In this document: in pieces, positions 10,609-61,964 of the stretch | Numbering within the stretch: the first letter of the stretch is position 1 | How the letters are laid out: every line of letters starts with the position of its first letter | Source of the DNA: an uncultured Gammaproteobacteria bacterium | Lineage (GTDB): Bacteria; Patescibacteriota; Microgenomatia; Levybacterales; UBA12049 | DNA length: 64,000 nucleotides | Direction of reading: 5' to 3' | Assembly (NCBI GenBank): GCA_964571255.1 | Contig: CAZNAA010000001.1 | Span: 423,674-487,673 of the forward strand | Made by a program: the position numbers and the translations under genes | Notes under the pieces: generated by a model | The model's database searches: none | What the model saw: the letters and a program-made list of their open reading frames with translations, nothing else | What the model was told of the DNA's origin: nothing

Positions 10609-11181
10609 ATGACAGCAGACCATACGTGTAACTATTGCCACCAACCTCTTGATCCAAATCAAGAAACCTGTTGCCGCGAACAGGCAGAAAAACAACTTCT
10701 GGATATTCTTCAAGTAACCCTTAAAAAGCCAACAGAGGAATTTTTACAACGACTTAAAACAATTTTTTCCACCAAATCAGAACAAGTACTCCAAGAGCAT
10801 CAACCTGAAGCATTCTCTCTTTCAGAAATAATTGATAAATTCCTCATCATTGCCTTAAAAAATCAGTATCTCGATGGTGATAGACTTGTTCAGAATAAAA
10901 ATGACTATCAAAACGTTGAAGATGTCATTAGAAATAAGTTTACTTCCTATGAAATTAATGATCTCCCCTTATTCCTATCACTGTGTAGTGACTTATGGGT
11001 AGTAAACGCTGAGATTTTTTGTATTAATGATATTTGTACAAGTAATCAGGATGATAAAATTGTAGCTGCTGCCGCACGAAGAATGTTTGATATGATTAAA
11101 GAAAGAAATCGAATCAAACATGCAATTGCTAAAGAATTAAAAGAAATGATGTTTGAGACAAAACAGTTCCAGAAAGCCTAG
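10609..11181 (+). CDS. Hypothetical protein with an N-terminal Cys cluster (CNYCHQ...ETCC)
   Basis: 190-aa ORF with no recognisable family. It is convergent with copZ. Confidence 0.3.
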   Translation: MTADHTCNYCHQPLDPNQETCCREQAEKQLLDILQVTLKKPTEEFLQRLKTIFSTKSEQVLQEHQPEAFSLSEIIDKFLIIALKNQYLDGDRLVQNKNDYQNVEDVIRNKFTSYEINDLPLFLSLCSDLWVVNAEIFCINDICTSNQDDKIVAAAARRMFDMIKERNRIKHAIAKELKEMMFETKQFQKA

Positions 11182-11193
11182 TTAACAACTATT

Positions 11194-11409
11194 TTATTGC
11201 TTAATTCTTGCAAGATACCCTGTCTTTTTAATTATTCCAACTATCTGTTCTAAATTAATTTTCTTTTCGTCAAATTCAACATCTGTCTCTTGTTTGGCAT
11301 AATTAGTATTTGATTCGATAACCCCCTCTGTATCTTCAAGTTCGCCATCAATATTCATGGCACAATTTGTGCAGTGCATTCCCTCAATTTTCAACGTTAC
11401 TTTCTTCAT
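11194..11409 (-). CDS. copZ: Copper chaperone CopZ (HMA domain)
   Basis: The 71-aa product carries the GMHCTNCA (M-x-C-x-x-C) motif in a ferredoxin-like HMA fold. Confidence 0.8.
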   Translation of the reverse strand: MKKVTLKIEGMHCTNCAMNIDGELEDTEGVIESNTNYAKQETDVEFDEKKINLEQIVGIIKKTGYLARIKQ

Positions 11410-12545
11410 ATTACATTTATCATCCCTCGATACATTCCCATGCTACACATAAAGGGGATTTGTGTTGGTTTATCAGGCATCTTGAGTGTAACGGTTTCTG
11501 TCTCTCCTTCTTGAACAACTTTTTGATAATTAAAAGCTGGAATAGTAAATGCGGAGGCACACGTGTACACCCCATCATTTCTTATCTCAAATGATACATT
11601 TGTTCCAACTTTTACGGTCACTATGTTTGGACTGTAACCACCTTCTAGTATATTAATCACAACATTCTCTTGAGGGGCACTATTTTTAGATTTGTTTTCT
11701 AAATTAGAATTTTGGCCAGATAGAGTATCAATTGTCCATAAACTTCCACTCAATGCAAGTACGTTGTTTAAATTAAATACGGCAAGAATAATAATGGCAA
11801 ATGCTGCTACCTTCATAAATTTTTGACGCAACGATTCACCCAATCTACTTGTAAAGTATCCAAGAATAAAAAACAATGGAGAAGTTCCAAGCACAAAAGC
11901 AAATAAGATTGCAGATCCCAAAAATGGATTTGCTGAACCTATGGCAAGAGCCATCATTGCCTGGGTAACACCACATGGAATAAACACCGTGAATGCACCA
12001 AGTAATGCTGGTGCGAATAAACTTTTACTTTTTGATTGATTTCTCACAATACGTGTTAGTGATTTTGGTGGTTGAATGATAAAGTATCTAAAAATTGGGT
12101 GAATATTAAGAATACTCAATGCTGTCCCTACCATAAAGATAACTACGACTAATTGCATCACAATTTGTGTGCGTAGTGATAATTGAAAAAGGGAGCCAAA
12201 AAAACCAAGAAGAAAACCAAGAATAGTATAGGCAATTAGTTTTGAAATAAGAAACGATAAAATTGGAAGCACATTGCCAGATTGGTTTGTTTTCTCCTTT
12301 AATGTATCTTCTTGTCGTTGGGCTAAAGTTGCGGCAAGTAATCCTCCTTGGATTGCTAAACAACTTAAGCCCCCAGTCAAAAGACCAGTTATAAAAACCG
12401 CCCACAAGTTAATATGTTGATCTGTAACACTTGAAACATTTGGATTCTCGAGTGAGTAAATTTTTAGCAAAAGAAAACCAATAAGAATAATAGCACCAAG
12501 ACACGCAGAAATCAATAATGTTTGTTTTTTAATCCTAATCTCCAT
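11406..12545 (-). CDS. Polytopic permease (DsbD_2/CcdA-like topology) fused to a C-terminal cupredoxin-like metal-binding domain
   Basis: The ~280-aa N-terminus has 7-8 TM segments with Cys-containing TMs (GGLSCLAIQGG and FIPCGVTQA). The C-terminal ~100 aa (EGGYSPNIVTVKVGTNVSFEIRNDG...CASAF...FMCSMGMYRGMINV) is paralogous to ORF 14822-15187. It overlaps copZ by 4 nt. Confidence 0.5.
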   Translation of the reverse strand: MEIRIKKQTLLISACLGAIILIGFLLLKIYSLENPNVSSVTDQHINLWAVFITGLLTGGLSCLAIQGGLLAATLAQRQEDTLKEKTNQSGNVLPILSFLISKLIAYTILGFLLGFFGSLFQLSLRTQIVMQLVVVIFMVGTALSILNIHPIFRYFIIQPPKSLTRIVRNQSKSKSLFAPALLGAFTVFIPCGVTQAMMALAIGSANPFLGSAILFAFVLGTSPLFFILGYFTSRLGESLRQKFMKVAAFAIIILAVFNLNNVLALSGSLWTIDTLSGQNSNLENKSKNSAPQENVVINILEGGYSPNIVTVKVGTNVSFEIRNDGVYTCASAFTIPAFNYQKVVQEGETETVTLKMPDKPTQIPFMCSMGMYRGMINVI

Positions 12546-12594
12546 ATTCTTTTTTCTTTAATACTCCTTATTAATTAAGTTCTTTGAACCATAT

Positions 12595-14832
12595 TCATTC
12601 TATTCTAACTCTTTTTAGTAAGAGTGAGTTAGAGACTACTGAGATTGACGATAGTGTCATAGCAACTGATGCAAAAATTGGGTTTAACAACAAACCAATG
12701 AATGGATAAAGGATACCCGTAGCTACTGGGATAAGTATTACATTATATCCAAATGCCCAGAATAAATTCATCCGTATTGTTCTCATAGTTTTTTGGGATA
12801 AATCAATTGCAGAAGAGACAGCTTGCAAATCTTTATTCACAAGAATGATGTCTGCTGCTTCGATTGCAACATCTGTTCCCGAACCCATCGCAATTCCAAC
12901 GTCTGCTGCTGCAAGTGCAGGGGCATCATTTATTCCATCGCCAACCATTGCTACAACTTTTCCTTCAGATTTAATCTTTTGTATTTCTATTTCTTTTTCG
13001 TGTGGTAAAACTTCTGCAAGAACTTGTTTTATACCTAGTTTTTGAGCAATTGAGTTTGCAGTTCTTTGATTGTCGCCAGTAATCATCACTACTTCAATAC
13101 CTTTCTTTTGTAACGCATGTACGCCTTCTTTGGCAGATGGTTTTATCGTATCTGCAACAGCAATAAATCCAGCAAGCGTCCCATCAACAGCAAGCATCAT
13201 AACTGTTTTACCTTCACTTTCTAATTTTTCTAACTGAGCTGAAACATTGCTGAAAGAAATCTTTTCTTTCTCTATGTGCTTTCTATTTCCTAGAAGAACT
13301 TTTTTACTCCCTATCATTCCGACAACTCCATGTCCTGCAATAGCTTGAAAGTTGGAGACAGAATCAAGTGTGATTTTCTCATCATCTGCTTTCTTCACGA
13401 TGGATTCTGCTAATGAGTGTTCTGATCCCTTTTCTACAGATGCAGCAAGTCTTAATACCTCGTCTTTCTTATAGTCATTTAGAGAGATAATATCTATTAT
13501 TTCAGGTTTTCCATTAGTTAATGTTCCCGTCTTATCAAAAACTATCGTTTTTATCTTATTTGCTAACTCCAGACTCTGTGCATCCTTAATTAAGATCCCC
13601 TTTTCAGCACCTAAACCTGTTCCCACCATAATTGCAGTAGGTGTTGCAAGTCCCATTGCACAAGGACAAGCAATGATGAGAACTCCAACAGTATTTAGCA
13701 TGGCATACAAAAACGCAGGACTTGCACCGAAAACATACCAAATACCAAACGTTGCAAAAGCAAGCATAATAACAACGGGAACAAAGTAAGAAGAAACTGC
13801 ATCAGCAAGTCGTTGAATCGGTGCCTTACTGCCCTGAGCATCTTGCACGAGTTTGATTATTTGAGCAAGCATTGTCTCAGAGCCAACCCTCATTGCTTTA
13901 TAAGTAAAAGTACCAGCTTTGTTCATCGTAGAACCAATAACCATGTCACCTTTTGCCTTTTCAACTGGGATACTTTCCCCACTAATCATAGACTCATCAA
14001 GTGCTGATTCTCCATTTATTATTTGCCCATCAACTGGTATTTTTTCACCTGGTCTTACTCGAATAATATCTCCTACTTTTACTTGCTCAATTGGAATATC
14101 AAATTCTTTTCCGTCTCTTACAACTCGAGCTGTTTTTGCTTGGAGTTCAACAAGTTTTTTAATTGCCCCAGAAGTTCCTGCTTTCGCTTTTGCTTCAAAA
14201 TATCTCCCAAGTAAAATTAACCCAATAACAATTGTTGCCACGTCAAAATAGGGCATTATTTCAACACCTAATCCCATAAAAACTGTAGGAAAAACAGTAA
14301 CAAAAGCAGAGTAAAAAAAGGCAACAGTTGTTCCTAAAGCAACAAGAGTATCCATATTGGAAGTTCTCTGTTTAAGAGCTGCAATAGCAGTTTTATAAAA
14401 CTCAGAACCTGCCCAAAATTGAACAGGTGTGGCTAAAAATAGTTGTATCCAAAAATTCTGTAAAAATGTTGGAGCAGTAGTCATTACTCCAGGAAAACTT
14501 CCCCAAAGAATTAACCCACCAAGGACTAAGCTAGTAATAACTTTGTTGCGTAGTACTTGGAGCTCTTTTTTCTTCTCTCCTTCTGCGACTTCTTCACTCT
14601 TTTCTTCAAGTTCAAGTGTATAACCCGTCTTGGCAACAGAATCAGCTAATTGCTCTTGTGTACAAGTATCCGTATCAAAGGTAACAGTTGCTTTCTCAGT
14701 TGCAAGATTGACAACAGCGTCTTTAACACCTAATACTTTTTTTAACGCCCGCTCAGTTACTCTTACACAAGACGCACAGTGCATGCCAGTAAGTCGAAAT
14801 GATTGTTTTACCTCAGTCATATTATTCAACAA
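12595..14832 (-). CDS. copA: Copper-translocating P1B-type ATPase
   Basis: N-terminal HMA motif (GMHCASCV), CPC metal site in the TM region ([13 protein letters not shown]), phosphorylation site DKTGTLT and hinge [10 protein letters not shown]. Length 745 aa. Confidence 0.9.
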
Positions 14833-15187
14833 TTATTTTTCCATGAAACATATTCATTCCACAGGACATTTCATATGTTCCGTTCTTCTTGGGTGTAATT
14901 TGAATAGATGTGGTTTTATTCAGAGGTAAATGTCTTCTAATCTTAAACTCAGGAAGGACAACTTCTTCCAAACAAGAGCTTTGGTCATGGCGTATGAAAT
15001 TTATTGTTGTAGTTTTACCTTTTGGGATAGAAATGACGTTGGGAGAATATCCACCTTCCACAGTAATATCTACACTGTTGGCCATTACTACTACGGTTGC
15101 ATCGTCTTTCTTCATCAAGAAAAACCAGTAGGTAAATCCTATTCCTCCTATACTAAATGCTGCAACAAGTAATTCATCAATTCCCAT
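14822..15187 (-). CDS. Small membrane-anchored cupredoxin-like (Cys/Met/His) metal-binding protein
   Basis: 121-aa product with an N-terminal TM segment. The domain [29 protein letters not shown]...[17 protein letters not shown] is paralogous to the C-terminus of 11406-12545. It overlaps the copA start by 11 nt. Confidence 0.5.
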
Positions 15188-15236
15188 ACGTTATCACCTT
15201 AGAAGAAGTGCATTTTTTGCACCTCTCCCAAAAAGA

Positions 15237-15899
15237 TTACTGAGAATACCCCCAGTCTATATACCATTGCCTCATCTGGTCAATCTCATTTGTCTGAGCA
15301 GTTATTATGTTATCAGCAAGCTTTTCCATTTCAGATCGCTGAGTTCCTCCTTTAAGCATATTTGCCATCATTACAGCCATTTGATGATGTGGAATCATTC
15401 CCTCAATGAATGCTTTATCAAAATCCTTTGCATTTTCAAGACTTGTCATATCTGTATCATTACCCATCATCCCCATGTGCATACTATTTCCTGTTTTCAT
15501 TCCGTGCTGATTCATAATAGTACTCCCTTCAGGAACGTCTTTTCCAAACCAAGATGTATACCAATCTTTCATTTGATTAATTTCCCTCCCCTGAGAAGTA
15601 ATAATATTTTCTGCTAACAACTTTATTTCAGGTTTTTGTGCTTTAGTTTGAGCAAGTTTTGCCATAGTGATTGCATCTTCGTGATGTGGAATCATTTGTT
15701 CTATAAAATGTGCATCAATTGAATCAGAATTTCGGATATTACTTGGCTGGGTTCCATTTCTATACCCCATCATTCCCATCATCGCAAAATTATTCGAGTT
15801 AAAAATATTTATAGAGATAAACCATATAAGCAACCCTCCAATAAATATTCCTCCCACTCCATATTTCAGATTATTGTCCATATTTTCACCTCCCTTCAT
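15237..15899 (-). CDS. Membrane-anchored protein with two DUF305 (HH-motif four-helix) repeats
   Basis: An N-terminal TM segment is followed by the repeat motifs FIEQMIPHHEDAITMA and FIEGMIPHHQMAVMMA. Such domains commonly sit in copper-resistance loci. Confidence 0.6.
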   Translation of the reverse strand: MKGGENMDNNLKYGVGGIFIGGLLIWFISINIFNSNNFAMMGMMGYRNGTQPSNIRNSDSIDAHFIEQMIPHHEDAITMAKLAQTKAQKPEIKLLAENIITSQGREINQMKDWYTSWFGKDVPEGSTIMNQHGMKTGNSMHMGMMGNDTDMTSLENAKDFDKAFIEGMIPHHQMAVMMANMLKGGTQRSEMEKLADNIITAQTNEIDQMRQWYIDWGYSQ

Positions 15900-16171
15900 T
15901 ATGATTTCTTTTTAAACACTTCCATTATTTCAGCAATTGATTTATCAGCTTCACCATTCTTAATTGCATCAGCAACACACCCTTTCAGATGGTTTTCAAG
16001 AAGGAGATTTCCTGTTTCTTTCAGTCCACTCTCAATAGCCTGCATTTGATGCAATACGTCAATACAATACGCATCTGTCTCAATCATTTTAATAACTTTA
16101 TCAAGGTGTCCTCTTGCTATCTTTAGTCGGTGAGTAATTCGTTCCTGAGTATCTTTTGGTCTATATGCCAT
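15899..16171 (-). CDS. csoR: CsoR/RcnR-family copper-sensing repressor; ATG at 16171 preferred over the track's TTG at 16219
   Basis: The core ITHRLKIARGHLDKVIKMIE...YCIDVLHQ...C shows C-H-C ligand spacing. The track's codon 1 is TTG (read from the sequence). An in-frame ATG at 16169-16171 (MAYRPK...) is preceded by GGGGGA and by the operator palindrome. Confidence 0.7.
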   Translation of the reverse strand: MAYRPKDTQERITHRLKIARGHLDKVIKMIETDAYCIDVLHQMQAIESGLKETGNLLLENHLKGCVADAIKNGEADKSIAEIMEVFKKKS

Positions 16172-16193
16172 ATATCCCCCTAGTAGGGATATA
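16171..16193. promoter_or_regulatory. Putative CsoR operator: TATATCCC-N7-GGGATATA inverted repeat
   Basis: 8-bp perfect inverted repeat with a 7-nt spacer, read directly. It is a G/C-tract pseudo-palindrome like known CsoR operators and sits immediately 5' of the csoR ATG at the head of the cop operon. Confidence 0.4.
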
Positions 16194-16286
16194 CTATCCG
16201 TTAACAAGTGAGATGTCAATCTGACAACTATCTAAAGAAAACTTGAGATAATTGATGAAAAATCGGAGTTGAGGATTAATTAGAAG

Positions 16287-17420
16287 CTAATTCTTCTGTC
16301 TTAGAAAGGCGGGGATATCCCATTCATCTTCTTCTTTTTCAACAGGCTTCTCATTGCTGTTATTCTGAGGAATAGATGGTTGGGATTGTGGTTGGGACTG
16401 AGGACGTTCATCTTCATCAGATACTTCATATCGACGATTTGGCATAAAGTTACTAAGCGTTTGTTTCGTTGAGTCAAAGCCTGTTGCAACTACCGTAATT
16501 CGCATTTGATCAGTCATACTTTCATCAATTGCTGCTCCAAAAATAATGTTGGCATCTGGATCTGCAGCCGCACGAATAATCTTGGCTGCTTCATCGACCT
16601 CAGTCATGGTGAGATCAGAATCTCCTACGATATTAAAGAGAACTCCTCGTGCTCCCTCCATGGAGACTTCAAGAAGCGGGCTAGAAATTGCCATTCGTGC
16701 AGCAGCTTGGGCTCGTCCTTCTCCTTTTCCTGTTCCAATACCCATAAGAGCACTTCCTGCATTTACCATAATGGTTCGAACGTCAGCAAAGTCGATATTG
16801 ATAAGACCAGGAAGCGTAATGATTTCAGAAATTCCTTGAACTCCTTGGTTCAGTACAGAATCTGCTACTTTAAAAGCATCAACAAGTGAGAGTTTTCGAT
16901 CTACTACTTCAAGAATTCGTTGATTGGGGATAACAATAAGGGTATCTACTTTATCTCGAACACTCTCGATCCCCTCCTCTGCAGCAACCATTCTTCGAGT
17001 TCCTTCAAAAGCAAATGGTTTAGTAACAACAGCAACAGTTAAGGCTCCTACTTCTTTAGCAATCTGAGCAACGACAGGAATAGCACCTGTTCCTGTTCCT
17101 CCACCCATTCCAGCTGTAAGAAAGACCATGTCTGATCCTTCAAGCATGTGTTTAATTTTTTCTGCAGATTCCTCAGCTGCAATTCGCCCTACTTCTGGAT
17201 CTCCTCCTGAACCAAGACCGCGAGTATAATTTTCACCTATTTGGAGTTTTGTATCTGCTTTATTTCGAAGAAGGGCTTGAGCATCGGTATTTACAGCAAC
17301 AAAGTCTACACCTTGAATTGCATTACTGCTAATCATGGAGTTAACTGCATTTCCTCCGCCACCACCAATACCAAGTACTCGAATTTTGGCAAAATTAGTA
17401 GCCTGAGGCTTTATCAGCAT
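16287..17420 (-). CDS. ftsZ: Cell division GTPase FtsZ
   Basis: Tubulin signature GGGTGTG, N-terminal [15 protein letters not shown], and a conserved C-terminal DIPAFLR peptide. Confidence 0.95.
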
Positions 17421-17576
17421 AATGGGTCAATCCTATCAGATAAAAATAGCATTTGCAAGGATATAGGATGGAATTAATGAGGAGTAATTATCTTTCGCTC
17501 TGAAAACAAATATTTTATTTTCAAGGCGAAAGAGAGAGATTGGGTTGATAGCTATGATGTTCTCTTTCGCGTCCGC

Positions 17577-17972
17577 TTAGCGGACTGACTCCACTGTGTA
17601 GTGGAGCTTATAATCCGAAGTGATATGTACCACAAGGAAAAGCTTGCCGGTGCCGTCGAGTAGGTAAATGGGATAAGAGGTGCGATGCTTATCGGGCACC
17701 GCTCCAGCATAATACCAAACACCATTCCGCCCGGCCGTGTAGTGCCGGACTTCGAGCCAGCACACGCTGCTGCGAGAGAACTGAACTAGGGTGACGTACC
17801 CCCCGAGAGGGGCTGCCTCATCTCCGAACAGTTGCTTTTCGTAGTTGTTCTGCCCTGATGGGCATGACTCGCTGAGTGCGACTGGCGTGATGGTCGGAGT
17901 GATCACCAGAATCGACAGAATCGACAGAATCACCGGTAATCGGTTAGCCTGGTTGCCATTCCGTTGCTGCAT
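17577..17972 (-). CDS. Small secreted protein (signal peptide plus ~100-aa two-Cys domain) encoded on a GC-rich insert
   Basis: 131-aa ORF with canonical SD AAGGAGG 5 nt upstream of the ATG. The N-terminus (RLPVILSILSILVITPTITPVALS-ES) is signal-peptide-like. Local G+C is much higher than the flanks. Confidence 0.45.
   Translation of the reverse strand: MQQRNGNQANRLPVILSILSILVITPTITPVALSESCPSGQNNYEKQLFGDEAAPLGGYVTLVQFSRSSVCWLEVRHYTAGRNGVWYYAGAVPDKHRTSYPIYLLDGTGKLFLVVHITSDYKLHYTVESVR
17907..17933. repeat. 9-bp tandem direct repeat (cagaatcga x2 plus cagaatcac)
   Basis: Read directly from the sequence. It encodes the ILSILSIL core of the signal peptide on the minus strand. Confidence 0.6.
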
Positions 17973-18221
17973 CTGATCCTCCTTTGAGAACTTTTTGCCA
18001 TCTGCCCCGTTTGGCAGTCAGCAAAACGGCCCCATTCTAAAGATACTATGTATCTTCACAATAGAACCGTCTTATCAACTACTACTTGGTGGCTTTTGGC
18101 CCAATCTCTCTATTAATGTGCAGATTCTATTCGTAAGTGAAACTAAATAGCCTCAAAAACAAACAAAAATCGTAAGGTGATCCTAGCACAAAAAAAGGAA
18201 ATGTCAATACTATAGGTTTAT

Positions 18222-51835: not shown

Positions 51836-52058
51836 AGTGCTTTAGTATTACTACTATCACATACCCTACTAAAAAAGACAACGCGTACATAATGAATCTT
51901 CGTGCGGTAAAGAAATTTCCTAAAGTATAAAGAAGAAGTGAGGATCCAGCAAGAAAAGTACTACTCCATAAAAATATTCTTTCATTTTTCTTGAAAAGAA
52001 AAATGAGAATAAGTATGAATAGAAAGGAAATTATCCAAACGATATCTTGAATTTTCAT
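51819..52058 (-). CDS. Small two-TM membrane protein
   Basis: 79 aa with two hydrophobic segments. It overlaps its neighbours by 4 and 17 nt. Coding status is uncertain. Confidence 0.3.
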   Translation of the reverse strand: MKIQDIVWIISFLFILILIFLFKKNERIFLWSSTFLAGSSLLLYTLGNFFTARRFIMYALSFLVGYVIVVILKHYENRN

Positions 52059-53017
52059 TTAGCCTCTGAAGAATATTTTAGAGGAAATATGATAGGTTTG
52101 TCATCTTCCATTGGTTGAGAATATGACATATGAAGCAAAAGATCAGCAATAAAGCCTGTTGAAAAGATTTGTAATCCTCCAACAATAAGGAGTACTGCAT
52201 ACGTTAAGAGAGGTCTTGTACCAATTGATTGTCCACTCAAACGGAGAAGTGTGAGATAGACAAGGAGAGCTCCTCCAATAATGGTACATATTCCACCAAT
52301 TATTCCAAAAAAGTGCATAGGTCTTTTACTGTACTTGAAAATAAAGATTACGGTAAACATATCTGGAAGCTCCTTCCAGAGTTTAGAAAAACCATATTTA
52401 GAAGTACCTTGCATTCGTGGAGCATGTTCAACTACTACTTCATCAACTGAAAATCCGTTATTTTGTGAGATAAGAGGAATAAAACGATGGAGCCCTCCAT
52501 AGAGTCTAAGAGATTTAGCAGCATCTTTTTTATACATCTTAAGTCCACAGTTATAATCATGAAGGCTTAATCCAAATAGATAATTCATGATTTTATTGAA
52601 AATTCGAGAGATAGCAACCATTTTGGACTTATCTTTTCTATCTCTTCTCCATCCAGAAACAACATCTGTTCCTGATTGACATTTTTTAAGTAATTTATGG
52701 ATTTCAGTTGGCTTATCTTGTAAATCTGCATCCAATGTAACAATATAATCTCCGTCTGATTTTTGGAAACCTAAGGTAAGGGCCTCAGCCTTACCCATAT
52801 TTTTTCTAAAAGAAAATGCTTTTACTCTCTTATCCTTTTTAACTAAATCTTGAAGCATAGAGAGACTTTTATCTGTAGAACCATCATCGACAAACACTAT
52901 CTCATAGCGAGAAGATAAAGAAGGCATAACACGAGTTGCTTCAGCATAGAAAGCATCAAGACTTTCTTCCTCGTTGTAGACTGGAACTACCACTGAAATC
53001 AACGGATTTTTTTCCAT
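52055..53017 (-). CDS. Polyprenyl-phosphate glycosyltransferase (GT2; DPM1/GtrB/ArnC-like with a C-terminal 2-TM anchor)
   Basis: ISVVVPVYNEEESL...VFVDDGSTDKS...DADLQD, plus two C-terminal TM segments. Confidence 0.75.
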   Translation of the reverse strand: MEKNPLISVVVPVYNEEESLDAFYAEATRVMPSLSSRYEIVFVDDGSTDKSLSMLQDLVKKDKRVKAFSFRKNMGKAEALTLGFQKSDGDYIVTLDADLQDKPTEIHKLLKKCQSGTDVVSGWRRDRKDKSKMVAISRIFNKIMNYLFGLSLHDYNCGLKMYKKDAAKSLRLYGGLHRFIPLISQNNGFSVDEVVVEHAPRMQGTSKYGFSKLWKELPDMFTVIFIFKYSKRPMHFFGIIGGICTIIGGALLVYLTLLRLSGQSIGTRPLLTYAVLLIVGGLQIFSTGFIADLLLHMSYSQPMEDDKPIIFPLKYSSEAK

Positions 53018-54984
53018 ATTATTAAACTATATATCGAGTATATCACAAATGCCAATAAAAGTCCTATAGGTAATAATTTTGTGTAGTTTTGTAGTGTATA
53101 ATGAAGCTTTAGTGAAGAAGAAGAATCAGGAGATATAGTAAATTTCATTGTGTTAAATTCTGTTTTTTCAACTTTTTTTGTTATACCTTCTTGCTCAATC
53201 TCCCAAAAAGGATCATACATCTCAGAAAAATAAATCTCTCTATTTGGCTCTGTCTTCAAAGCAGAGGTATCAAGCGTATAAGAGACAGGTGAAGCAGAGG
53301 TAACAGCTATTTCCCCCTGTGCTGACCAAATATGATGTTTATACTCATCCACCTCATAAAGGATTACTCCCTCTTTCTCTATTTTTTTAAGCCAAGAGAG
53401 AGAATCAAGAGTAGCATAGGTTTCTTTTTCCAGCTTTGGTGAATATTTACGATCTTGAGTAAAGATAGTACCTTCTGTATCTTTAGGAACAATAATATAT
53501 CGAATAGCTGACTCTTTTATCCTTTGCTCAGTTACTGAGTTTTTCATTTTGTTATGAAGAGAAGATAGTGAATATGTTTCAAAGTAATCAACAGCAGGAA
53601 TTGCAGGATGGGTGAAAGAATAGTAACTAAAAATAGAAATACTCGGATACCAAAGTGTTCGATAAAAAGAAGCATCTTTTTTTATTACCTCTCCACTTTT
53701 TTGATACCACTGCGGAACTTCCCGTGATTTGATTGCACCTGTTGGTGTAAAAAGAAGATAGTGGAGTGTTGGGATTGTAAGAATAAAAACTGCATAGATA
53801 AAAAGGCAAGCTTTTATTTTTTGAGACTTTTCTTTTGAGAACAAATAGATACTCAGTGGGAAAAGAATCATATACCCAACAAGTACTAACATAAAAAACT
53901 TACTCGGATCTCTAAATAAAGAAAATCCTGGAATATGAAAGAATAACCACTGAAAGATTTGCCCAAAAGGATCCTGCACTCCTTTTCCAAAAAAACTTCC
54001 AAGAAGAATAAGAACAAGTGAAAATATAATAAGAACCTTTGTATTCTTCTCTTGTTTGCTTAAGGAGAGAAAAAGTAAGGCTGAGAAAGGTAAAAGAAGA
54101 AAAAGTGGTGAGAAAAAACTCATTTTTCCAAATATATTCTCAGGCCAAAAGGGATGATGAAGAGCAAAGGGATATTCAATAGTTGCAAAACTAAAATACT
54201 TTAATGCCTCAACACTATAAAAGGCTTTCCCCAAATCTTTAATAGGATCTGTCTTATGAAGAAGTACTGGAATGTACCAAAAAGCATTTAATACTATAAG
54301 AAATAGAGTGGAAAAAAGAAACATTCCACCAAAAAGATACATTATTTGTTTTTTATTTTTCGCAAATATAAACTGGAGAAGAGTAAAAAGCCCCACAATT
54401 CCTAATCCTAAAACAAATACACGCAACTCATACCATAAAAGAAGTGCTAGTGAAAATGGAAAGAGTATAATTCCAATCTTTTTTTCCAAAATACTTCCAA
54501 AATTAGTACTAAGAACTAAAGAAAGTGTCACGAGAATCAAACAACTAAATCCTAGAGCCATTTGGACTTGTCCTCCTGATAAGAGTAAAACAACATATGA
54601 GTTAAAGAAGAAAAGTATTGGACCAAGTAGCCCTATCCACCAACTCTTTGTGATTTGTCTAACAAGAAGAAAACTTCCTCCTCCACCCAAGATAAAAAGA
54701 GGAAGAAAAAGAACTACGCGAACAACTATTTCCCAAGAAATATGAAGAGTATCTAAAAGAAATCGGAAAGGTAAGGTAATTGGCAGAAAATACCAAAGAA
54801 ATGGAGCATAGAATCCCCCCGTCCCAGATCCTCTTTGCATGTCCCAGACAAAGGGAAGCGGGAGAAGGTTACTACTATTCCAATAGGGCAAATCAGTATT
54901 GGTTAACGTACCTGGAGTTAGAATTCCTCGATATGCTATAAGAATGATTCCAATTATCGATGCAACAAGAAGGTATTTTTTCAT
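52999..54984 (-). CDS. Large polytopic membrane protein, GT-C-like
   Basis: 661 aa with about 13 TM segments, a ~200-aa extracytoplasmic C-terminal domain and a terminal TM segment. It sits immediately downstream of a polyprenyl-P GT2. Confidence 0.4.
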   Translation of the reverse strand: MKKYLLVASIIGIILIAYRGILTPGTLTNTDLPYWNSSNLLPLPFVWDMQRGSGTGGFYAPFLWYFLPITLPFRFLLDTLHISWEIVVRVVLFLPLFILGGGGSFLLVRQITKSWWIGLLGPILFFFNSYVVLLLSGGQVQMALGFSCLILVTLSLVLSTNFGSILEKKIGIILFPFSLALLLWYELRVFVLGLGIVGLFTLLQFIFAKNKKQIMYLFGGMFLFSTLFLIVLNAFWYIPVLLHKTDPIKDLGKAFYSVEALKYFSFATIEYPFALHHPFWPENIFGKMSFFSPLFLLLPFSALLFLSLSKQEKNTKVLIIFSLVLILLGSFFGKGVQDPFGQIFQWLFFHIPGFSLFRDPSKFFMLVLVGYMILFPLSIYLFSKEKSQKIKACLFIYAVFILTIPTLHYLLFTPTGAIKSREVPQWYQKSGEVIKKDASFYRTLWYPSISIFSYYSFTHPAIPAVDYFETYSLSSLHNKMKNSVTEQRIKESAIRYIIVPKDTEGTIFTQDRKYSPKLEKETYATLDSLSWLKKIEKEGVILYEVDEYKHHIWSAQGEIAVTSASPVSYTLDTSALKTEPNREIYFSEMYDPFWEIEQEGITKKVEKTEFNTMKFTISPDSSSSLKLHYTLQNYTKLLPIGLLLAFVIYSIYSLIIWKKIR

Positions 54985-55045
54985 TAAATATGGTAGGTAT
55001 ATACTTTATAGTAACGGATAATAATAGGCGAATCTATATGTAGTT

Positions 55046-56119
55046 CTAACGGACAAGCTTTTTTTCATCTCGTAGTTCTATCCACGCATGTAATAGACCG
55101 ATAAGAAGAAGTAAAAACACCCATATACTGGATTCATCAGCAAGTAGGGGTTTATTTATTGTTAAAAGAATGATAGTCAAACCTAGCATAAAAATAGAAG
55201 AGAAAAAAGAGATAACACTTGGAAGTTTATAAAACCATACTCCAAGTACCCACAAAAACATTGTATGGCTTAATAAGTATCCGTTCACTCCAGTGAAAAG
55301 AAATATTGGTATAAGAATAATTATGTGTAAAAGAAATATTACACTAAAGGTATTAAGAGTAATGATATGAGTAGCCAAAAGCTTATGTCCTTTTTTCACT
55401 CGTTCGTTTCCTTTAAGCTGTTTTATTATTCTTTTTGCACCTGATTCAATAACATTTTTAAAAAGAAGATATGTCAAAAATGGACTAAATGAGAATGCAA
55501 TAATAAGAATGCTTATAGGATTTGATAATGAGAAAGTTATCTTTTGTGCAATGAAATGAAGAGACACAGTTTTGTCTGAGACTAGAACAGCTTTAGAGAA
55601 TTGATAACTTCCAACAATAGCAGGATAATTTGGATTAAAGGTCAACGAATTATCCTCTGTTCCCCTTTGAGAAATAACTTCAACAATATATTTTTTATTT
55701 TTAGATGAGGCTATTGTTGGAAAACCAAATGGGTAAAGAGTAAGCGTTCGGAAATTTCCTCCCCCGTATGCCCGTTCGTAATACCATTTTGCATCACCCT
55801 CCTCTTTTATTCGAAATACTATTTCATCCTCATCAATATTCCACTTGTTATAATTTTTTAGACGGAGTGAAATAATTCCGAGATTATCTTCTGAAGCTAT
55901 AAAAACAGCTCTAACCTTTTCTCCTTTTAGAATTCTTCCTGTTTTACTTTTACTATCAAGACCTGAAGTATGATCAACAGGCAAGGTAGATAAACTAGCA
56001 CTATTATTAAAAAGAACCATTGCAGCGACAAACAAGCCAAAGAAGAAGAACATGTAGAGAGTAATCCAGTGTCTGATATGTATACCTATGAGGTTTATTA
56101 CGGAATAAATAAATTTCAT
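55046..56119 (-). CDS. Hypothetical membrane protein (N-terminal TM, beta-rich ectodomain, C-terminal 4-5 TM)
   Basis: 357 aa with no recognised motifs. Confidence 0.3.
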   Translation of the reverse strand: MKFIYSVINLIGIHIRHWITLYMFFFFGLFVAAMVLFNNSASLSTLPVDHTSGLDSKSKTGRILKGEKVRAVFIASEDNLGIISLRLKNYNKWNIDEDEIVFRIKEEGDAKWYYERAYGGGNFRTLTLYPFGFPTIASSKNKKYIVEVISQRGTEDNSLTFNPNYPAIVGSYQFSKAVLVSDKTVSLHFIAQKITFSLSNPISILIIAFSFSPFLTYLLFKNVIESGAKRIIKQLKGNERVKKGHKLLATHIITLNTFSVIFLLHIIILIPIFLFTGVNGYLLSHTMFLWVLGVWFYKLPSVISFFSSIFMLGLTIILLTINKPLLADESSIWVFLLLLIGLLHAWIELRDEKKLVR

Positions 56120-57288
56120 ACTGAAAAGATTGGTTTTAATGCTCTACTATAAATTGCACTCCAATCAAACTCTTTAGCATATCGCAAAGCATTTTTCCTA
56201 TACAGTTGAGTTTGTGTCTTATCTTTCATGAGCTTAATAATTGTATCCGCTAATACTTTTTTATCATATTTAACTACAACACCACATCTCCTCTTCTCAA
56301 GTTCATCACCCATATATGTAACGTTTGTTGTAATGACAGGTAAACCGCACCCGAGATACGATTTGATCTTTGATGGATCAGCATAATAGGACCATATATC
56401 TAATTCTTTACTATACATTGCAACCGCAACATCTCCTTGGATAAGGATTTTTTCGACGTCTTCATGTTTCTCTTGATATCCTAAGAACTCTACATACTTT
56501 TCAATCTTTAACTGTTTAGACTTTTTCTTTAAAACCTCTTCATAGTTTCCAGAACCAACAATTTTAAAGACAAAATTGGGAAGTTTTTTTACTACTAAAG
56601 GAATCGCTTCTAGAACTACCTGTACTCCTTGATGAGGAGATAATCCTCCTGCATATACAAGAACATTCTGAGAAGTTTGCTTACTTTTTCTTTTTGGAAT
56701 TCTATCAATCCAGATGCCAATTGGAGCAATGATTTGCTTATTATAAACTTCTCTTGATAACCCTCTTACTTTTTCTCTTCCCTCTGCCATTCTTTCTGTT
56801 AAATTCCACGTTACATCAGCTAGTTTGACTGATTGTTTATCGAGGAAATGATAGATATTGTTAAGAACATTATTCTTAAACCGTTGAGGTACGAAGTCTA
56901 TTGTGTAATAGATAACTTTTTCAATATATCCTACGCTTTTTAATATGAGTCCAGTTATCGTGTTTAAATTATCAAGAGCAATAATTAAATCCCATTTTCC
57001 CCCTATTTTTATAACCCAGAAAATAGTCACTAGTATATCACGAATATAAGCAGGGATTCCTGATAAAGGATAATTTTTGTGAGAAACGGATTTAACTAAT
57101 TTCCCATTTTTATAAAGTTTAAAATAGGATCCAGGTTTACCTTCTTTATAGAACAAGGGGTGACCAATAAAAAGAAGTTCCTTTACTTTACGATCTAATA
57201 AAAACTTCTCCAGATCTTCAGCAGGAACTGTTGTAATTACATGAGACAGAATAATAATTGATTTTTGATGTAATCCTTGTTTTTTCAT
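56116..57288 (-). CDS. GT4-like glycosyltransferase
   Basis: GT-B C-domain YAGGLSPHQGVQVVLEAIP...GCGLPVITTNVTYMGDE. Confidence 0.6.
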   Translation of the reverse strand: MKKQGLHQKSIIILSHVITTVPAEDLEKFLLDRKVKELLFIGHPLFYKEGKPGSYFKLYKNGKLVKSVSHKNYPLSGIPAYIRDILVTIFWVIKIGGKWDLIIALDNLNTITGLILKSVGYIEKVIYYTIDFVPQRFKNNVLNNIYHFLDKQSVKLADVTWNLTERMAEGREKVRGLSREVYNKQIIAPIGIWIDRIPKRKSKQTSQNVLVYAGGLSPHQGVQVVLEAIPLVVKKLPNFVFKIVGSGNYEEVLKKKSKQLKIEKYVEFLGYQEKHEDVEKILIQGDVAVAMYSKELDIWSYYADPSKIKSYLGCGLPVITTNVTYMGDELEKRRCGVVVKYDKKVLADTIIKLMKDKTQTQLYRKNALRYAKEFDWSAIYSRALKPIFSV

Positions 57289-58532
57289 TTTTTCTTTTTT
57301 ATGTTTACTTTTGCTATCATATTTCTTCCTCTTGCAATAAAAGGTTGTTCAATTAACTTCTCACTCATGGTACTTACCAGGAGAGTAATAAGAAATATGG
57401 AAATAAATCTAAGATATTCATTTCCTAGAGGTATAAGAGTGAAAAAAGCAATAATTAATAAATGAAATAAGTAGAACGAATAACTAATTTTTCCTATATG
57501 TAGAATGAACTTATTCTCAAAAACCACTCTTACCAAAACTCCTCCTTCTAAACATGCGAAAATTAATACCATAGTAAAAAGAGAAAGGAAAAGATCGGGT
57601 AGTAAGATTGTGCTATTAATATATAAACCTAGTAGTACAAGAAGAAAAAAGATTGAGGAATTTTGAATGATCTGTTTATTTATATTTTTTTTAACTAACG
57701 ATAACATTTTTTGCTGAAAAAAAAGGACATAGGCAAAAAGACTAAGTCCAATGACCCAAAAAATTCTTTGTTCCGTAGACAGTGCTTTTAAGATATAGAT
57801 GAAGATTCCACTGGTAACTACTACAGAGAATATATGTTTAAAATTGGGAAAGATAGAAATAATTTTTCCACGTGTAGGTTTTATCATATATGCTAGTATT
57901 CCCATACAATAAACTGCTAAATATGTTTCAATAGCCCAGTCCCCTCCCCCTAATCGTATTTGATAAATCGGTAACTCAACAGTTCTATTCAGATAAAAAA
58001 ACACTCCCATCCCAAGTAAACCAACAAGGAATAAACTATACTTTCTTGCCAAAAAGAAAATAAAAGGAATAACCAAATAGTAAAAGAACTCTAAAGGGAT
58101 AGTCCACTCTACACCCAGCAAACTATTTTGATATCTTTGATTAAGAATACTAAAAAAAGTGAGATGATAAAAAAGATTGGCAAAGTCAAAAGTTGAAAGT
58201 TGGAATAGATTTTTATAATAGGCAGCCAAAGGTAAAAATCCTCCTAATAAAAAACAAATAATCATAACAAAGTAGTACAACGGAACAATTCTGAGAATTC
58301 TTTTTTTTAGATATACTCTAAAATCAAATAGTTTTGACCTATCAATACTCATACACAGCGTAAAGGCTGAGATAATAAAAAATACTGTTACTCCATATTT
58401 CCCAAAATTTACTAATTTATCAGAAAACGAATTGATATTTCCCAGGAAGGTTCCTGCATGAATGAGAAACACAAAAAGTGCGGCATATCCCCGAAGACCA
58501 GTAATAAAAGCTAATGTTTCTTTCTGTTCCAT
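57285..58532 (-). CDS. Acyltransferase family 3 (OatA/OafA-like) membrane O-acyltransferase
   Basis: N-terminal FITGLRGYAALFVFLIHAG..., 10-11 TM segments, 415 aa. Confidence 0.75.
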   Translation of the reverse strand: MEQKETLAFITGLRGYAALFVFLIHAGTFLGNINSFSDKLVNFGKYGVTVFFIISAFTLCMSIDRSKLFDFRVYLKKRILRIVPLYYFVMIICFLLGGFLPLAAYYKNLFQLSTFDFANLFYHLTFFSILNQRYQNSLLGVEWTIPLEFFYYLVIPFIFFLARKYSLFLVGLLGMGVFFYLNRTVELPIYQIRLGGGDWAIETYLAVYCMGILAYMIKPTRGKIISIFPNFKHIFSVVVTSGIFIYILKALSTEQRIFWVIGLSLFAYVLFFQQKMLSLVKKNINKQIIQNSSIFFLLVLLGLYINSTILLPDLFLSLFTMVLIFACLEGGVLVRVVFENKFILHIGKISYSFYLFHLLIIAFFTLIPLGNEYLRFISIFLITLLVSTMSEKLIEQPFIARGRNMIAKVNIKKKK

Positions 58533-58534
58533 AC

Positions 58535-60715
58535 TTATTTCTTTTTTTTCTCTCTCCTTTGAACAAGATTATAAACTATATATATACCCAAACTAATAAG
58601 TGTAATTAAGGTAACTAACATTCCACTTAGTCTTTTTGCTTCAGGTTGAAAATAGAGGGTAAATTCAGCTGAAGTAGTACTATTCATTTGTCCTTGTTGA
58701 AAGATATCACTACGTGGATCAAGTATCCACCCATTGGCATACTCATTTGCATGTACTCTTTCAACAACAGCATTTCTTCTTCTCAAAAATAATAAGTCAT
58801 TTGTTCTAGTCAGATCTCCTGGATACAACCTCCACTTATCAGAATATGGAGTATTAAATACAAGCACTGTTTTTTCTGTTACTCCTTCAATTGTAATATG
58901 ATACTTTGCTGCAGATGTCTTCTTATAACTAATCTTATTATTTCCTGTCGATGAAAAAAGTTCTTTCTTTCCGATTTTATTTTCTTCTACCACTTTTTTA
59001 ATTTGATAAACAGAGATATCTTTCGAACGGTCAATCATTGACAAGTATCCTGGATCTTTAGGAGCAGTGTATCTTCCAATAAATGATAATCTTTCATCGT
59101 TATTTAAAATTTCATTTAACTCTTTAGCTGGTAACTCTAAATCTTCAAATTTATTATAGATAAGAATCGTATCAACTCCATAATGTGTTAATGTATCAAT
59201 AGCAGTAGGAGAAGTGATTTCTTTAATTTTCTGATAATATGCTCTGCTATTTTCGTCAGCAAACGGACTTAGACCGGCTGTAAGAGGTTTTTCATAAATA
59301 ATCTGCCCCATAAGTTGATAGGTTGGGGGAAATCCGTTATCACCATTATTCAATACTAAAGGATAAGCAGAAATTGCATGAATTTGTGAATTATCCTTTA
59401 GTGGACTATATAGTTTCTCTATTGAGGCAAAACTCGTGCTTTTATACCAACTCCCATCAGATGTTAAGGAAATAAAAATAACAAAGATTCCAAGAAGTAT
59501 AAAGATGGCATACGAAAACCATTTTGAAATACGAGTATAGAGAGGGGAATTCATGTAGTAGCTAATAGTTACTCCAAAAAGAAGACCTAAGAAAAGCGTA
59601 GTGTGAACATTAATTCTGGCAACACTCCGAAACATACTAAAAAATTTAAAGTAAATTTCATTAACAAAAAAGAGATTGGGCACATATGAAGAAAGAAGAA
59701 TTGAAAGCAAAAAACAGCTAAAAAGAGTGAGGAATAATCTTTTTTTTCTTAAGAAAATAAGTGACCCAATTAAAAAAAGAGTAAGAAGTCCACTAAAAAT
59801 GTGGCTATAGTTACCAAAATGAAAAAATAAATAACTATTTTCTGCCATGGAAAAATGATAAACAATATCAAGTAATTCATTTTGAGGAAGTGAGTTTCTT
59901 CCACTCAAAACTGCCTGTGATTTATTAAATAGGTAGAGATTAGAAAGAATGAAATTAATATTTAAGAGAAAAAATACAATAAACAAAGGGCTGTAGTAAG
60001 AGAAGAAAGTACCAATTTTTCTTTGGATTGCTTCTTTATGATAAAGCAGAATAATTGGTACTGTAAAAATTCCCGAGAAAAATGCATAGTAAGCGTCTGC
60101 TTTAAAAAGAAGTCCAAAAAGTGTTATGGAAAGAACTAACGAAAACATGTTTCTTCTATCTAAGTAATAAAACAATGAAAGAAAATAAAGAGGAATCATT
60201 TCAGTATGATTAATAGACATTTGTCCTCTCCCCCATAAAACAGTATTAAAAGAAAAGGCATATACTAATCCAGCAATAAAACTCCCTACTTTATTTCTTG
60301 TTAAGTAATAACAAAGAATACTTGCTCCTAAAGCAGAGAGTGGATATACCAAAAAAGAAGAGATATTAATAACTAAGATAAGATTATTCCACGAAAAACC
60401 CATGAGGTTAAGTATAAATACTTGAATTGTATAAATGAGATTAAATACCGGGGAAAAGGCAAGATCAAACCCAAAAGGATACCCTGTAAGATTAATAACG
60501 TCATAAACGTGCTGATGCTTATGAATATACGTTAAGAACCATTGGTACCATAATCCTCCTTCTGTATCAATGTCAGGCATTGCATAATGAGTAAAGAACA
60601 AGGGAATACGATGTTTAAATATGATAATTGTTATAAGAGAATAACTAAGAAATGAGAGGGTTATATAGAAAAGAGTATTATGCTTGCGTACGGTACTGTT
60701 TAAGTTTTTAACCAT
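58535..60715 (-). CDS. Large polytopic membrane protein, GT-C-like (YfhO/ArnT-like topology)
   Basis: 726 aa with ~12 TM segments, followed by a ~280-aa extracytoplasmic domain and a terminal TM segment. Confidence 0.4.
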   Translation of the reverse strand: MVKNLNSTVRKHNTLFYITLSFLSYSLITIIIFKHRIPLFFTHYAMPDIDTEGGLWYQWFLTYIHKHQHVYDVINLTGYPFGFDLAFSPVFNLIYTIQVFILNLMGFSWNNLILVINISSFLVYPLSALGASILCYYLTRNKVGSFIAGLVYAFSFNTVLWGRGQMSINHTEMIPLYFLSLFYYLDRRNMFSLVLSITLFGLLFKADAYYAFFSGIFTVPIILLYHKEAIQRKIGTFFSYYSPLFIVFFLLNINFILSNLYLFNKSQAVLSGRNSLPQNELLDIVYHFSMAENSYLFFHFGNYSHIFSGLLTLFLIGSLIFLRKKRLFLTLFSCFLLSILLSSYVPNLFFVNEIYFKFFSMFRSVARINVHTTLFLGLLFGVTISYYMNSPLYTRISKWFSYAIFILLGIFVIFISLTSDGSWYKSTSFASIEKLYSPLKDNSQIHAISAYPLVLNNGDNGFPPTYQLMGQIIYEKPLTAGLSPFADENSRAYYQKIKEITSPTAIDTLTHYGVDTILIYNKFEDLELPAKELNEILNNDERLSFIGRYTAPKDPGYLSMIDRSKDISVYQIKKVVEENKIGKKELFSSTGNNKISYKKTSAAKYHITIEGVTEKTVLVFNTPYSDKWRLYPGDLTRTNDLLFLRRRNAVVERVHANEYANGWILDPRSDIFQQGQMNSTTSAEFTLYFQPEAKRLSGMLVTLITLISLGIYIVYNLVQRREKKKK

Positions 60716-60779
60716 GTTTTTATTGTAACAAATACATATAGTGCTTTATAAATAAAATTATCATTATTTACATTTACCT

Positions 60780-61850: not shown

Positions 61851-61964
61851 GTAACTAGGTTCGTGTAGGAAGTTTCATTACCGTATAATTCATGATTCAT
61901 AATTCCTAGCGTAACTAAACTAATATATCTTATGATTTTTAATAATACAAGGCATCAGACTATT

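Follow-up and report, generated by a model that had tools for sequence, protein, structure and literature searches.

A widespread DsbD_2-cupredoxin membrane fusion and its HMA partner in a predicted CsoR-repressed copper operon of a Patescibacteria genome

The 64,000-nucleotide (nt) stretch of DNA analysed here (the window, from contig CAZNAA010000001.1) carries on its minus strand, at positions 11194-16219, six co-directional genes in the open reading frame (ORF) listing. We identify them, with high confidence as to both identity and regulation, as an operon for Cu(I) resistance that CsoR represses, in a Levyibacteriota-like genome of the Patescibacteria. Among copper operons it is ordinary, and its interest, real but moderate, lies in a relay module, a widened CupA family and a misannotation. 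The relay module consists of a 379-amino-acid (aa) protein, in which a DsbD_2 membrane domain is fused to a C-terminal cupredoxin domain, and of the small HMA protein encoded next to it. Comparison of homologous sequences establishes a conserved three-station thiolate arrangement in this pair, with a CxxC of the HMA protein on the predicted inside, a Cys pair in the membrane and a CupA-type Cys/Met site on the predicted outside. The explanation that we consider best, and hold with about even confidence, is that Cu(I) itself would be handed outward along these stations; that level of confidence is set by the weakest step to which the explanation commits, namely Cu(I) as the species relayed. The fusion-HMA module is widespread and uncharacterised. 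Literature searches with the Pfam names, COG2836, "copper tolerance protein" and TauE together with copper found no experimental study of the fusion, and the only trace found is the computational placement of HMA+DsbD_2 proteins (COG2836) in the CsoR regulon of gut Firmicutes (PMC4938975).

The identity of the operon is carried by its regulator, its operator and its pump. CsoR contains Y35, C36, H61, C65 and E81 as read from its translation, residues that we take to be, in identical numbering, the Cu(I) ligands and second-shell residues of the Mycobacterium tuberculosis protein, and its sequence is that of a predicted Cu(I)-sensing repressor with a C-H-C ligand set. The candidate operator is a palindrome of the C-tract/G-tract type that occurs only once in the window, overlaps both the last base of the -10 hexamer and the Shine-Dalgarno (SD) sequence GGGGGA, and abuts the csoR ATG. 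Since it lies between the -10 hexamer and the csoR start, Cu(I) binding by CsoR should derepress all six genes. Of 54 related loci, 38 have a like palindrome ahead of csoR; a strict version of the pattern yields 33 boxes in 1.1 Mb of related loci, of which 21 are assigned to csoR starts, and most of the remaining 12 fall inside over-extended csoR ORF calls. The promoter is the best sigma-70-like match on the operon strand within 10900-16500, agreeing at 10 of 12 positions. CopA matches TIGR01511 with 642 bits (cut-off 397) and the E1-E2_ATPase, Hydrolase and HMA families, has a single N-terminal HMA domain (53.7 bits), and shows the motifs CASC19, SGE284, CPC389, DKTGT433, GDGIND631, YNVILIP696 and MTLSS725, a P1B-1 Cu(I)/Ag(I) ATPase by signature. 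A preliminary description of the locus, made from the sequence alone, had proposed a complete CsoR-controlled copper operon of six co-directional genes, and this is borne out by the CsoR ligand fingerprint, the conserved operator and the CopA signature. Indeed, all six products score above the curated Pfam cut-offs for the families that it had named (Trns_repr_metal, DUF305, Cupredoxin_1, E1-E2_ATPase, HMA and DsbD_2). The arrangement of the six genes is far beyond chance because the same gene set recurs in related genomes.

The fusion protein joins a membrane domain, matched strongly by PF13386 DsbD_2 (111 bits, 8.6e-32) and marginally by PF02683 DsbD_TM (30.1 bits, cut-off 27.1), to a C-terminal domain matched by PF13473 (49 bits, 6.4e-13), and an AlphaFold2 (AF2) model of the protein comprises seven transmembrane (TM) helices followed by a beta-sandwich. 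With its family profile the C-terminal domain matches CupA in the PDB at 2.1e-07, and its best Foldseek match is CupA entry 4f2e with a TM-score of 0.79. It shares 31% identity with the operon's own cupA-like protein (E=4e-10), in agreement with the earlier suggestion that the two cupredoxin-like domains are paralogous. Positive charges are distributed very unevenly over the membrane part: among 120 homologs the mean number of Lys plus Arg (K+R) is 1.9 at the N-terminus and 4.6, 6.3 and 2.3 in loops 1, 3 and 5, and only 0.29, 0.02 and 0.05 in loops 0, 2 and 4. This very strong positive-inside signal places the N-terminus inside and the C-terminal domain outside, so that the fused cupredoxin domain is very probably oriented outward. 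TM0 is absent from 20 of the 120 homologs, which start at TM1, as fits a six-TM core with both ends outward.

The residues that would form the membrane and outer stations are conserved far beyond close relatives. TM1 holds C62-x3-Q66 and TM4 holds P190-C191, and these positions, together with C329 and C367-x-M369-x-M371 of the cupredoxin domain, are invariant in the 120 homologs. C62, Q66, C191, C329, C367, M369 and M371 are still invariant at 34-42% identity (in Deinococcus, Tsukamurella and Streptomyces; four phyla overall). Q195, M197 and M198 are invariant only in closer homologs, and M197/M198 were dropped as a universal metal ligand, not being conserved in Actinomycetota. Next to C191, loop 3 (predicted to be cytoplasmic) is strongly basic and invariant. 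A blue-copper (type 1) electron carrier was considered for the fused domain and rejected: the domain has no invariant His, thus no type 1 copper site, and its ligands are of the CupA Cys/Met type. As a separate observation, two additional Cys residues (CTVSVC or CLVSYC) were noted in several homologs (P0070, P0077, P0090, P0101 and P0120; alignment A1, columns ~299-306). They fall in the linker, predicted to be extracytoplasmic, that joins TM6 to the cupredoxin domain. The pair is absent from the window protein; by its position it could be an additional relay station.

In databases the fusion is named "sulfite exporter TauE/SafE family protein", and it might accordingly be read as a sulfite or other anion exporter of the TauE/SafE type, or as an unrelated neighbour, the cluster being a plain csoR-copA-copZ set with passengers. 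Apart from the name carried by the source annotations, the sequence data speak otherwise. TauE (PF01925) fails to match the window protein at E<=0.1 and matches only one of 150 family representatives (7e-4), the CupA-type ligand set is invariant, and synteny with HMA and Cu(I) ATPase genes extends across four phyla. We therefore regard this reading as very improbable, and the naming, not supported by the data, as an apparent systematic misannotation.

The HMA partner in the window has its GMHCTNC motif at residues 10-16 and lacks a signal peptide. Because it stays below the cut-off of the NCBIfam CopZ models (53.4 versus 91), we treat it as a generic HMA chaperone and not as a CopZ equivalog, and the name copZ is used here in that sense. 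The fusion itself has more than 5,845 homologs, both domains being present in all of the best 120; its membrane domain alone forms 2,817 clusters at 50% identity. Of the best 150 membrane-domain representatives, all match DsbD_2 and 95 match Cupredoxin_1, the others being mostly fragments; no HMA domain was found in any of the 150, and the one weak TauE match is that given above. A genome scan found the fusion in 268 species genomes. Gene neighbourhoods were counted in the 80 best related loci. In 71 of the 72 that could be evaluated the fusion is followed immediately by an HMA gene, mostly within a few nt, and copA is adjacent upstream in 46 of 70. Within the locus, copA was found in 56 of 59 cases, csoR in 45, a cupA-like gene in 32 and DUF305 in 18, and all five partner features occur together in 12. 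The pair also persists where there is no copA within 8 kb (e.g. L019, L035, L053, L082 and Chlorohelix). On all five plasmids inspected (from Deinococcus, Chlorohelix, Tsukamurella, Mycolicibacterium and Streptomyces, three further phyla: Actinomycetota, Deinococcota and Chloroflexota) the fusion is followed by the HMA gene, and Tsukamurella and Mycolicibacterium repeat the window's order ATPase-fusion-HMA. Three of the partner ATPases on plasmids were examined, and all are of the CPC/YN/MxxSS Cu(I) type. The HMA partners are acidic proteins (mean net charge -3.1) of ~72 aa that carry an MHCxSC motif and lack a signal peptide. The accessory genes are copper-related, as the preliminary description had supposed, and are syntenic in related genomes. 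Its view of them as atypical holds against model organisms, but not more generally, given more than 5,800 homologs of the fusion, about 2,400 clusters of CupA-like proteins, ATPase-fusion-HMA sets also in Actinomycetota and fusion-HMA pairs also in Deinococcota and Chloroflexota.

In CcdA and DsbD the equivalent Cys positions are alternately exposed to each side of the membrane. By analogy, Cu(I) would pass from the CxxC of CopZ on the inside to C62/C191 in the membrane, alternately exposed as in CcdA, and from there to C329/C367 with M369/M371 on the outside. The basic loop 3 next to C191 would be the docking surface for the acidic HMA chaperone. Such a chain would give the cell a second, ATP-independent exit or hand-off route for Cu(I), at the end of which the ion would be held at the outer face or given to the CopM-type protein, which, like the fused cupredoxin domain, would face outward; the small CupA-like protein would work on the cytoplasmic side and feed CopA. 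We prefer Cu(I) as the relayed species because linkage of the HMA gene is tighter with the fusion than with the pump, because the pair persists without a nearby pump, and because the invariant basic loop 3 would offer a docking site for an acidic chaperone. Even so, the chance that the species is Cu(I) is in our estimate close to even or a little below. If Cu(I) is relayed, the outward direction is somewhat favoured for this operon, since the fusion would be co-expressed with efflux functions under CsoR.

The same Cys positions would also suit a redox relay like that of DsbD or ScsB, a role for the permease that the preliminary description had left out of account. Here C62 and C191 would pass electrons from a cytoplasmic thiol donor and keep C329 and C367 reduced to bind the Cu(I) released by CopA, the HMA protein mainly serving CopA, so that the module would unite in itself what Salmonella does with ScsB/ScsC-CueP. 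The fusion has matches to both DsbD_2 and DsbD_TM, the invariant TM1 and TM4 Cys with an external C-terminal Cys-pair domain mirror the DsbD beta-gamma layout, and a bis-thiolate site on the outside would presumably need re-reduction. Moreover, conservation of the Met pair in the membrane is not universal, the gene directly upstream of the fusion in 7 of the 80 loci encodes a DsbA-like CPFC protein with a membrane anchor, and TlpA, CcdA, glutaredoxin and peroxiredoxin genes are found in the plasmid islands beside the module. However, of the two family matches only that to DsbD_2 is strong, and the family profile detects no solved CcdA/DsbD chain even at E=10, the membrane domain having no solved relative detectable by sequence. 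No thioredoxin-fold partner gene was found in the 64-kb window, and homologs of DsbA, BlaI and BlaR1 were likewise not found there. The tight linkage of the HMA gene to the fusion also speaks against this reading: the gene follows the fusion almost without exception, in the window with an ATGA overlap, is less regularly accompanied by an adjacent copA, and stays with the fusion in loci lacking copA within 8 kb. On balance we consider a redox relay, the main rival of the Cu(I) relay, rather unlikely.

If Cu(I) or a related ion moves along the chain, it could also move inward. Following the logic of MerP-MerT-NmerA, the outer cupredoxin domain would capture a soft metal (Cu(I), Ag(I) or Hg(II)). 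This would be moved in by the Cys pair in the membrane and received by the HMA protein for handling by CopA or, in other hosts, by MerA, a scheme that corresponds to the "reuptake" idea of the preliminary description. The chain of Cys-pair stations is formally Mer-like, and the window CopZ scores best against the HMA part of a MerTP fusion model, although below the cut-off. On the plasmid of Tsukamurella tyrosinosolvens (L084 8461-9882) a 473-aa merA comes right after ATPase-fusion-HMA and is followed by a multicopper oxidase, and no annotated mer transporter was found in the 15-kb stretch. This MerA was judged, by its length alone, to lack an N-terminal HMA domain, and by analogy the fusion-HMA pair might stand in for MerT/MerP/NmerA in Tsukamurella. 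In the window, however, the genes would share a transcript with an efflux pump, and excess Cu(I) would release the repressor, so that import followed by re-export would be futile. In addition, every partner ATPase examined bears a Cu(I)-type signature, and merA adjoins the pair on only one of the five inspected plasmids. An inward relay is therefore improbable in our judgement.

Several points weigh against an outward Cu(I) relay. The AF2 model of the fusion has only moderate confidence (pLDDT, the predicted local distance difference test score, 65). Q195 and the Met pair M197/M198, which could have supported a metal path, are not conserved in the Actinomycetota homologs, and a passive outward route for Cu(I) has no obvious energy source. 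Membership in the DsbD/CcdA superfamily, with Cys in TM1 and TM4 and an external C-terminal Cys-pair domain, is an electron-relay architecture too; the recurrence of thiol-redox genes nearby points the same way, and the merA that follows the pair in Tsukamurella fits an inward relay. A modest charge bias is what supports the orientation assigned to the small CupA-like protein. Finally, no strict-pattern CsoR box was found before fusion-HMA pairs detached from csoR. A further possibility, to which we give somewhat less than even odds, is that the fusion and its HMA partner form an unrecognised class of copper transporter. In this class a DsbD-type alternating-access Cys pair, put to a new use, would carry Cu(I), and conceivably Ag(I) or Hg(II) as well, by ligand exchange. 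The metal would travel between a ferredoxin-fold chaperone in the cytoplasm and a cupredoxin-fold chaperone domain outside it, beside P1B-1 pumps in at least four phyla.

A recurrent insert between copA and the fusion was observed in ten of the related loci (L022, L026, L029, L030, L032, L043, L044, L051, L063 and L077). It encodes a BlaI/CopY-family repressor (PF03965, ~126 aa, without a C-terminal CxC) and a BlaR1-type M56 peptidase (PF05569), and it is within this insert that the DsbA-like protein occurs. The BlaI and M56 pair also lies beside the module on the Streptomyces plasmid pFRL6 (L085 3525-4870). From its gene content, the insert may constitute a second, protease-coupled regulatory circuit for a copper/thiol module.

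Table 1. Coordinates of the operon's features in the window
Feature	Position	Strand	Description
Promoter	16191..16219	minus	-35 TTGACA (16219-16214), 17-nt spacer, -10 TAGTAT (16196-16191)
CsoR operator (candidate)	16172..16192	no strand	palindrome ATATCCCTACTAGGGGGATAT; C-tract/G-tract type
csoR	15899..16171	minus	90 aa; PF02583 Trns_repr_metal 86.3 bits (cut-off 22.8), 1.8e-24
DUF305/CopM gene	15237..15899	minus	220 aa, or 214 aa from ATG 15881
cupA-like	14822..15187	minus	121 aa; N-terminal TM helix and cupredoxin domain, C71 and C108-G-M-N-M112
copA	12595..14832	minus	745 aa from TTG 14832; 741 aa from ATG 14820 (public calls)
Fusion, membrane part	11751..12545	minus	residues 1-265; TM0 and six-TM DsbD_2 core
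Fusion, cupredoxin domain	11409..11666	minus	residues 294-379; C329, C367-S-M369-G-M371
copZ-like HMA	11194..11409	minus	71 aa; PF00403 53.9 bits, 2.3e-14

The small CupA-like protein extends a family that has been tied to streptococci. It matches PF13473 Cupredoxin_1 with 82.9 bits (1.9e-23), and its residues 39-121 match CupA in the PDB (2mry/4f2e) at E=4.2e-19; the SSC and CGMNM of the window protein align with the PC and CGMNM of pneumococcal CupA, with all four ligands kept. The Cys and the CGMNM motif are conserved in 38 homologs from related loci, and the C-G-M-N-M motif serves to define CupA (PMC5552934). By sequence this is a Cu(I) chaperone of the CupA type, 121 aa long and tethered to the membrane. 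In these homologs (n=38) K+R averages 0.92 before and 2.71 after the TM helix, a bias that acidic residues offset, and by the positive-inside rule and by homology, neither being decisive, the domain most likely faces the cytoplasm and serves CopA, unlike the fused copy, which is predicted outside. The family comprises 2,369 clusters, with many named matches from Levybacteria, Patescibacteria and Saccharimonadales, and its members are annotated merely as cupredoxin or plastocyanin domain proteins. A review (PMC7558416) states that CupA occurs in no more than a few species of streptococci and that the chaperone has the same fold as the pump. None of the 71 CopAs that neighbour the module in related loci has a cupredoxin N-terminal domain, and 60 of the 71 have a single HMA domain, as has the window CopA. 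Thus CupA-type proteins occur with HMA-type pumps, which calls the requirement for a shared fold into question, and CupA-type chaperones are not a streptococcal peculiarity. We found no literature linking CupA to Patescibacteria.

The remaining accessory gene encodes a DUF305 protein matched over the full profile (positions 1-151 of 151) by PF03713 (156.6 bits, cut-off 27, 6.4e-46) and by the NCBIfam CopM model NF049983 (117.6 bits, cut-off 90) with two repeat units. It has been called a tandem DUF305 protein; Pfam recognises a single full-length domain, which contains two internal CopM-type repeat units. The protein is anchored in the membrane by its N-terminus and contains Met-rich stretches as well as two PHH motifs. 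On average (n=18) the flank ahead of the TM helix has 2.33 K+R and the flank behind it 1.00, a difference in favour of an outward domain, and the protein is predicted to be of the CopM type and extracytoplasmic. An extracytoplasmic branch of copper handling, as suggested in the preliminary description, is thus plausible, because the topology analysis places the DUF305 and fused cupredoxin domains outside; the small CupA-like protein, being most likely cytoplasmic, would not be part of it.

The layout of the operon is less tightly overlapping than the 4-11 nt overlaps first reported. The fusion and copZ share a 4-nt ATGA overlap, the sole certain one of that length, whereas gaps of 49 nt separate DUF305 from cupA-like and copA from the fusion. 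The cupA-like/copA overlap of 11 nt exists only with the TTG start of copA and becomes a 1-nt spacer with the public ATG 14820, and csoR and DUF305 overlap by 1 nt or, if DUF305 starts at ATG 15881, are separated by 17 nt. ATG 15881 is the better supported start, being preceded by the SD sequence GGGAGGTG. For csoR, the start is ATG 16171; the listed TTG at 16219 belongs to the -35 hexamer TTGACA, and public gene calls carry the same 90-aa product. The two 49-nt gaps hold ribosome-binding regions and nothing else, and no convincing internal promoters or terminators were found in the operon, their counts equalling the shuffle expectation. One Cu(I)-derepressed transcript across the operon is the simplest reading of this sequence.

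Identical proteins are present on an NCBI contig of 772,860 bp and in Logan assemblies of SRR8893623/4, and the nearest relatives are metagenome-assembled genomes (MAGs) labelled Levyibacteriota, Microgenomates or Patescibacteria. The taxonomic labels of MAGs were used as given, and several are implausible. The title "uncultured Gammaproteobacteria bacterium" is carried by many MAGs whose module is 55-77% identical to Levyibacteriota proteins, and single module matches are labelled Weeksellaceae, Sulfotelmatobacter or Methylomirabilota; these odd titles look like placeholders or mis-binned contigs. In the window the dcw cell-division cluster ends in ftsA and ftsZ and the copper operon comes next after ftsZ, as had been described. 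However, in the 80 related loci no ftsZ comes within 8 kb of the module, and the adjacency is therefore incidental. The fraction of G plus C (GC) in the operon, 0.35-0.37, is the same as in its surroundings.

Some features around the operon were noted in passing. On the plus strand a 190-aa ORF (10609-11181) with a Cys-rich N-terminus (CNYC...CC) converges on copZ, with 12 nt between the stop codons. It matches no Pfam family above threshold (a weak DUF6165 match reaches 0.0024), and the gene also adjoins copZ in the Logan contigs. On the minus strand, inside the ~800-nt gap between ftsA and ftsZ (17421-18221), lies an island of 54% GC (17577-17972) in a genome of ~36% GC. It corresponds to a 131-aa ORF with a strong SD sequence, AAGGAGGA, a signal-peptide-like N-terminus with a repeated ILS motif, and a GTCCGC...GCGGAC hairpin just 3' of the stop codon; no Pfam family and no significant Rfam match was found for it. 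A structured RNA at 17600-18000 was rejected, since the fold z-scores are -1.4 and -2.4, no Rfam match is significant and a coding ORF with a strong SD fits better; the ORF looks like a horizontally acquired small secreted protein inserted in the dcw cluster. Farther away, at 52000-64000, GC declines steadily from ~0.36 to 0.30 over a long run of minus-strand genes. Neither tRNA genes nor Rfam family matches were found in the window.

Copper handling beyond the cytoplasmic membrane is poorly understood in bacteria without a periplasm, and so are copper routes across the membrane other than P-type ATPases. The fusion-HMA module is abundant, genetically linked to Cu(I) pumps and HMA chaperones, and present in cultivable Deinococcus, Tsukamurella, Mycolicibacterium and Streptomyces, and the "sulfite exporter TauE/SafE" misannotation could be corrected. 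That ~5 kb of a genome of ~0.8 Mb is given to copper defence suggests that copper stress is a real selective pressure on small-genome Patescibacteria.

Of the known systems, the CsoR-CopZ-CopA module of Bacillus subtilis, Listeria and M. tuberculosis shares with the window the C-H-C CsoR, the C-tract/G-tract palindrome, the P1B-1 pump and the HMA chaperone. The window adds genes for a CopM-type protein, a CupA-type protein and the DsbD_2-cupredoxin fusion, and its copZ is coupled to the fusion and not to copA. As in the copY-cupA-copA operon of Streptococcus pneumoniae, the cupA-like gene is immediately upstream of copA, and the fused domain of the 379-aa protein, with C329 and CSMGM, is of the same type as pneumococcal CupA (4F2E/2MRY). 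In contrast, the regulator is CsoR and not the BlaI-family CopY, CopA has a ferredoxin-like HMA domain where the pneumococcal pump has a cupredoxin metal-binding domain, and the operon also has a CopZ. The DUF305 protein is of the same family as CopM of Synechocystis, with two repeat units, His/Met-rich motifs and a predicted extracytoplasmic location, CopM being periplasmic or extracellular (PMC4335983). In contrast to CopM, it is membrane-anchored, occurs in Patescibacteria and stands under CsoR instead of the CopRS two-component system, and no more than 18 of 59 related loci have a CopM-type gene together with the fusion.

For the module itself there are three partial parallels. Scs is a copper-tolerance reductase system, and with DsbD/CcdA and ScsB-ScsC/CueP the fusion shares the membrane superfamily, one invariant Cys each in TM1 and TM4, and an external Cys domain after the last TM helix. 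The link of Scs to copper tolerance is cited in PMC7785015. Unlike in DsbD or ScsB, the external domain of the fusion is a CupA-type cupredoxin and not a thioredoxin fold, and its fixed cytoplasmic partner gene encodes an HMA metallochaperone. In MerP-MerT-NmerA, metal sites built from Cys pairs lie on either side of the membrane and within it, one end of the series being an HMA protein, and the fusion with its HMA partner would follow the same station logic. However, no sequence relationship was found between the membrane part and MerT, the outer station is a cupredoxin and not an HMA domain, and the context is that of Cu(I), with CsoR and a P1B-1 pump. COG2836 of gut Firmicutes likewise combines a DsbD_2 membrane domain with HMA in a CsoR context; there HMA is fused and DUF2318 is present, whereas the window has a gene of its own for HMA and a cupredoxin as the fused domain. 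As a whole, the operon is of the known CsoR/CopA/CopZ kind, extended by the known CopM and CupA families, and what is new is the combination, that of CsoR with CupA and of CupA with an HMA-type pump.

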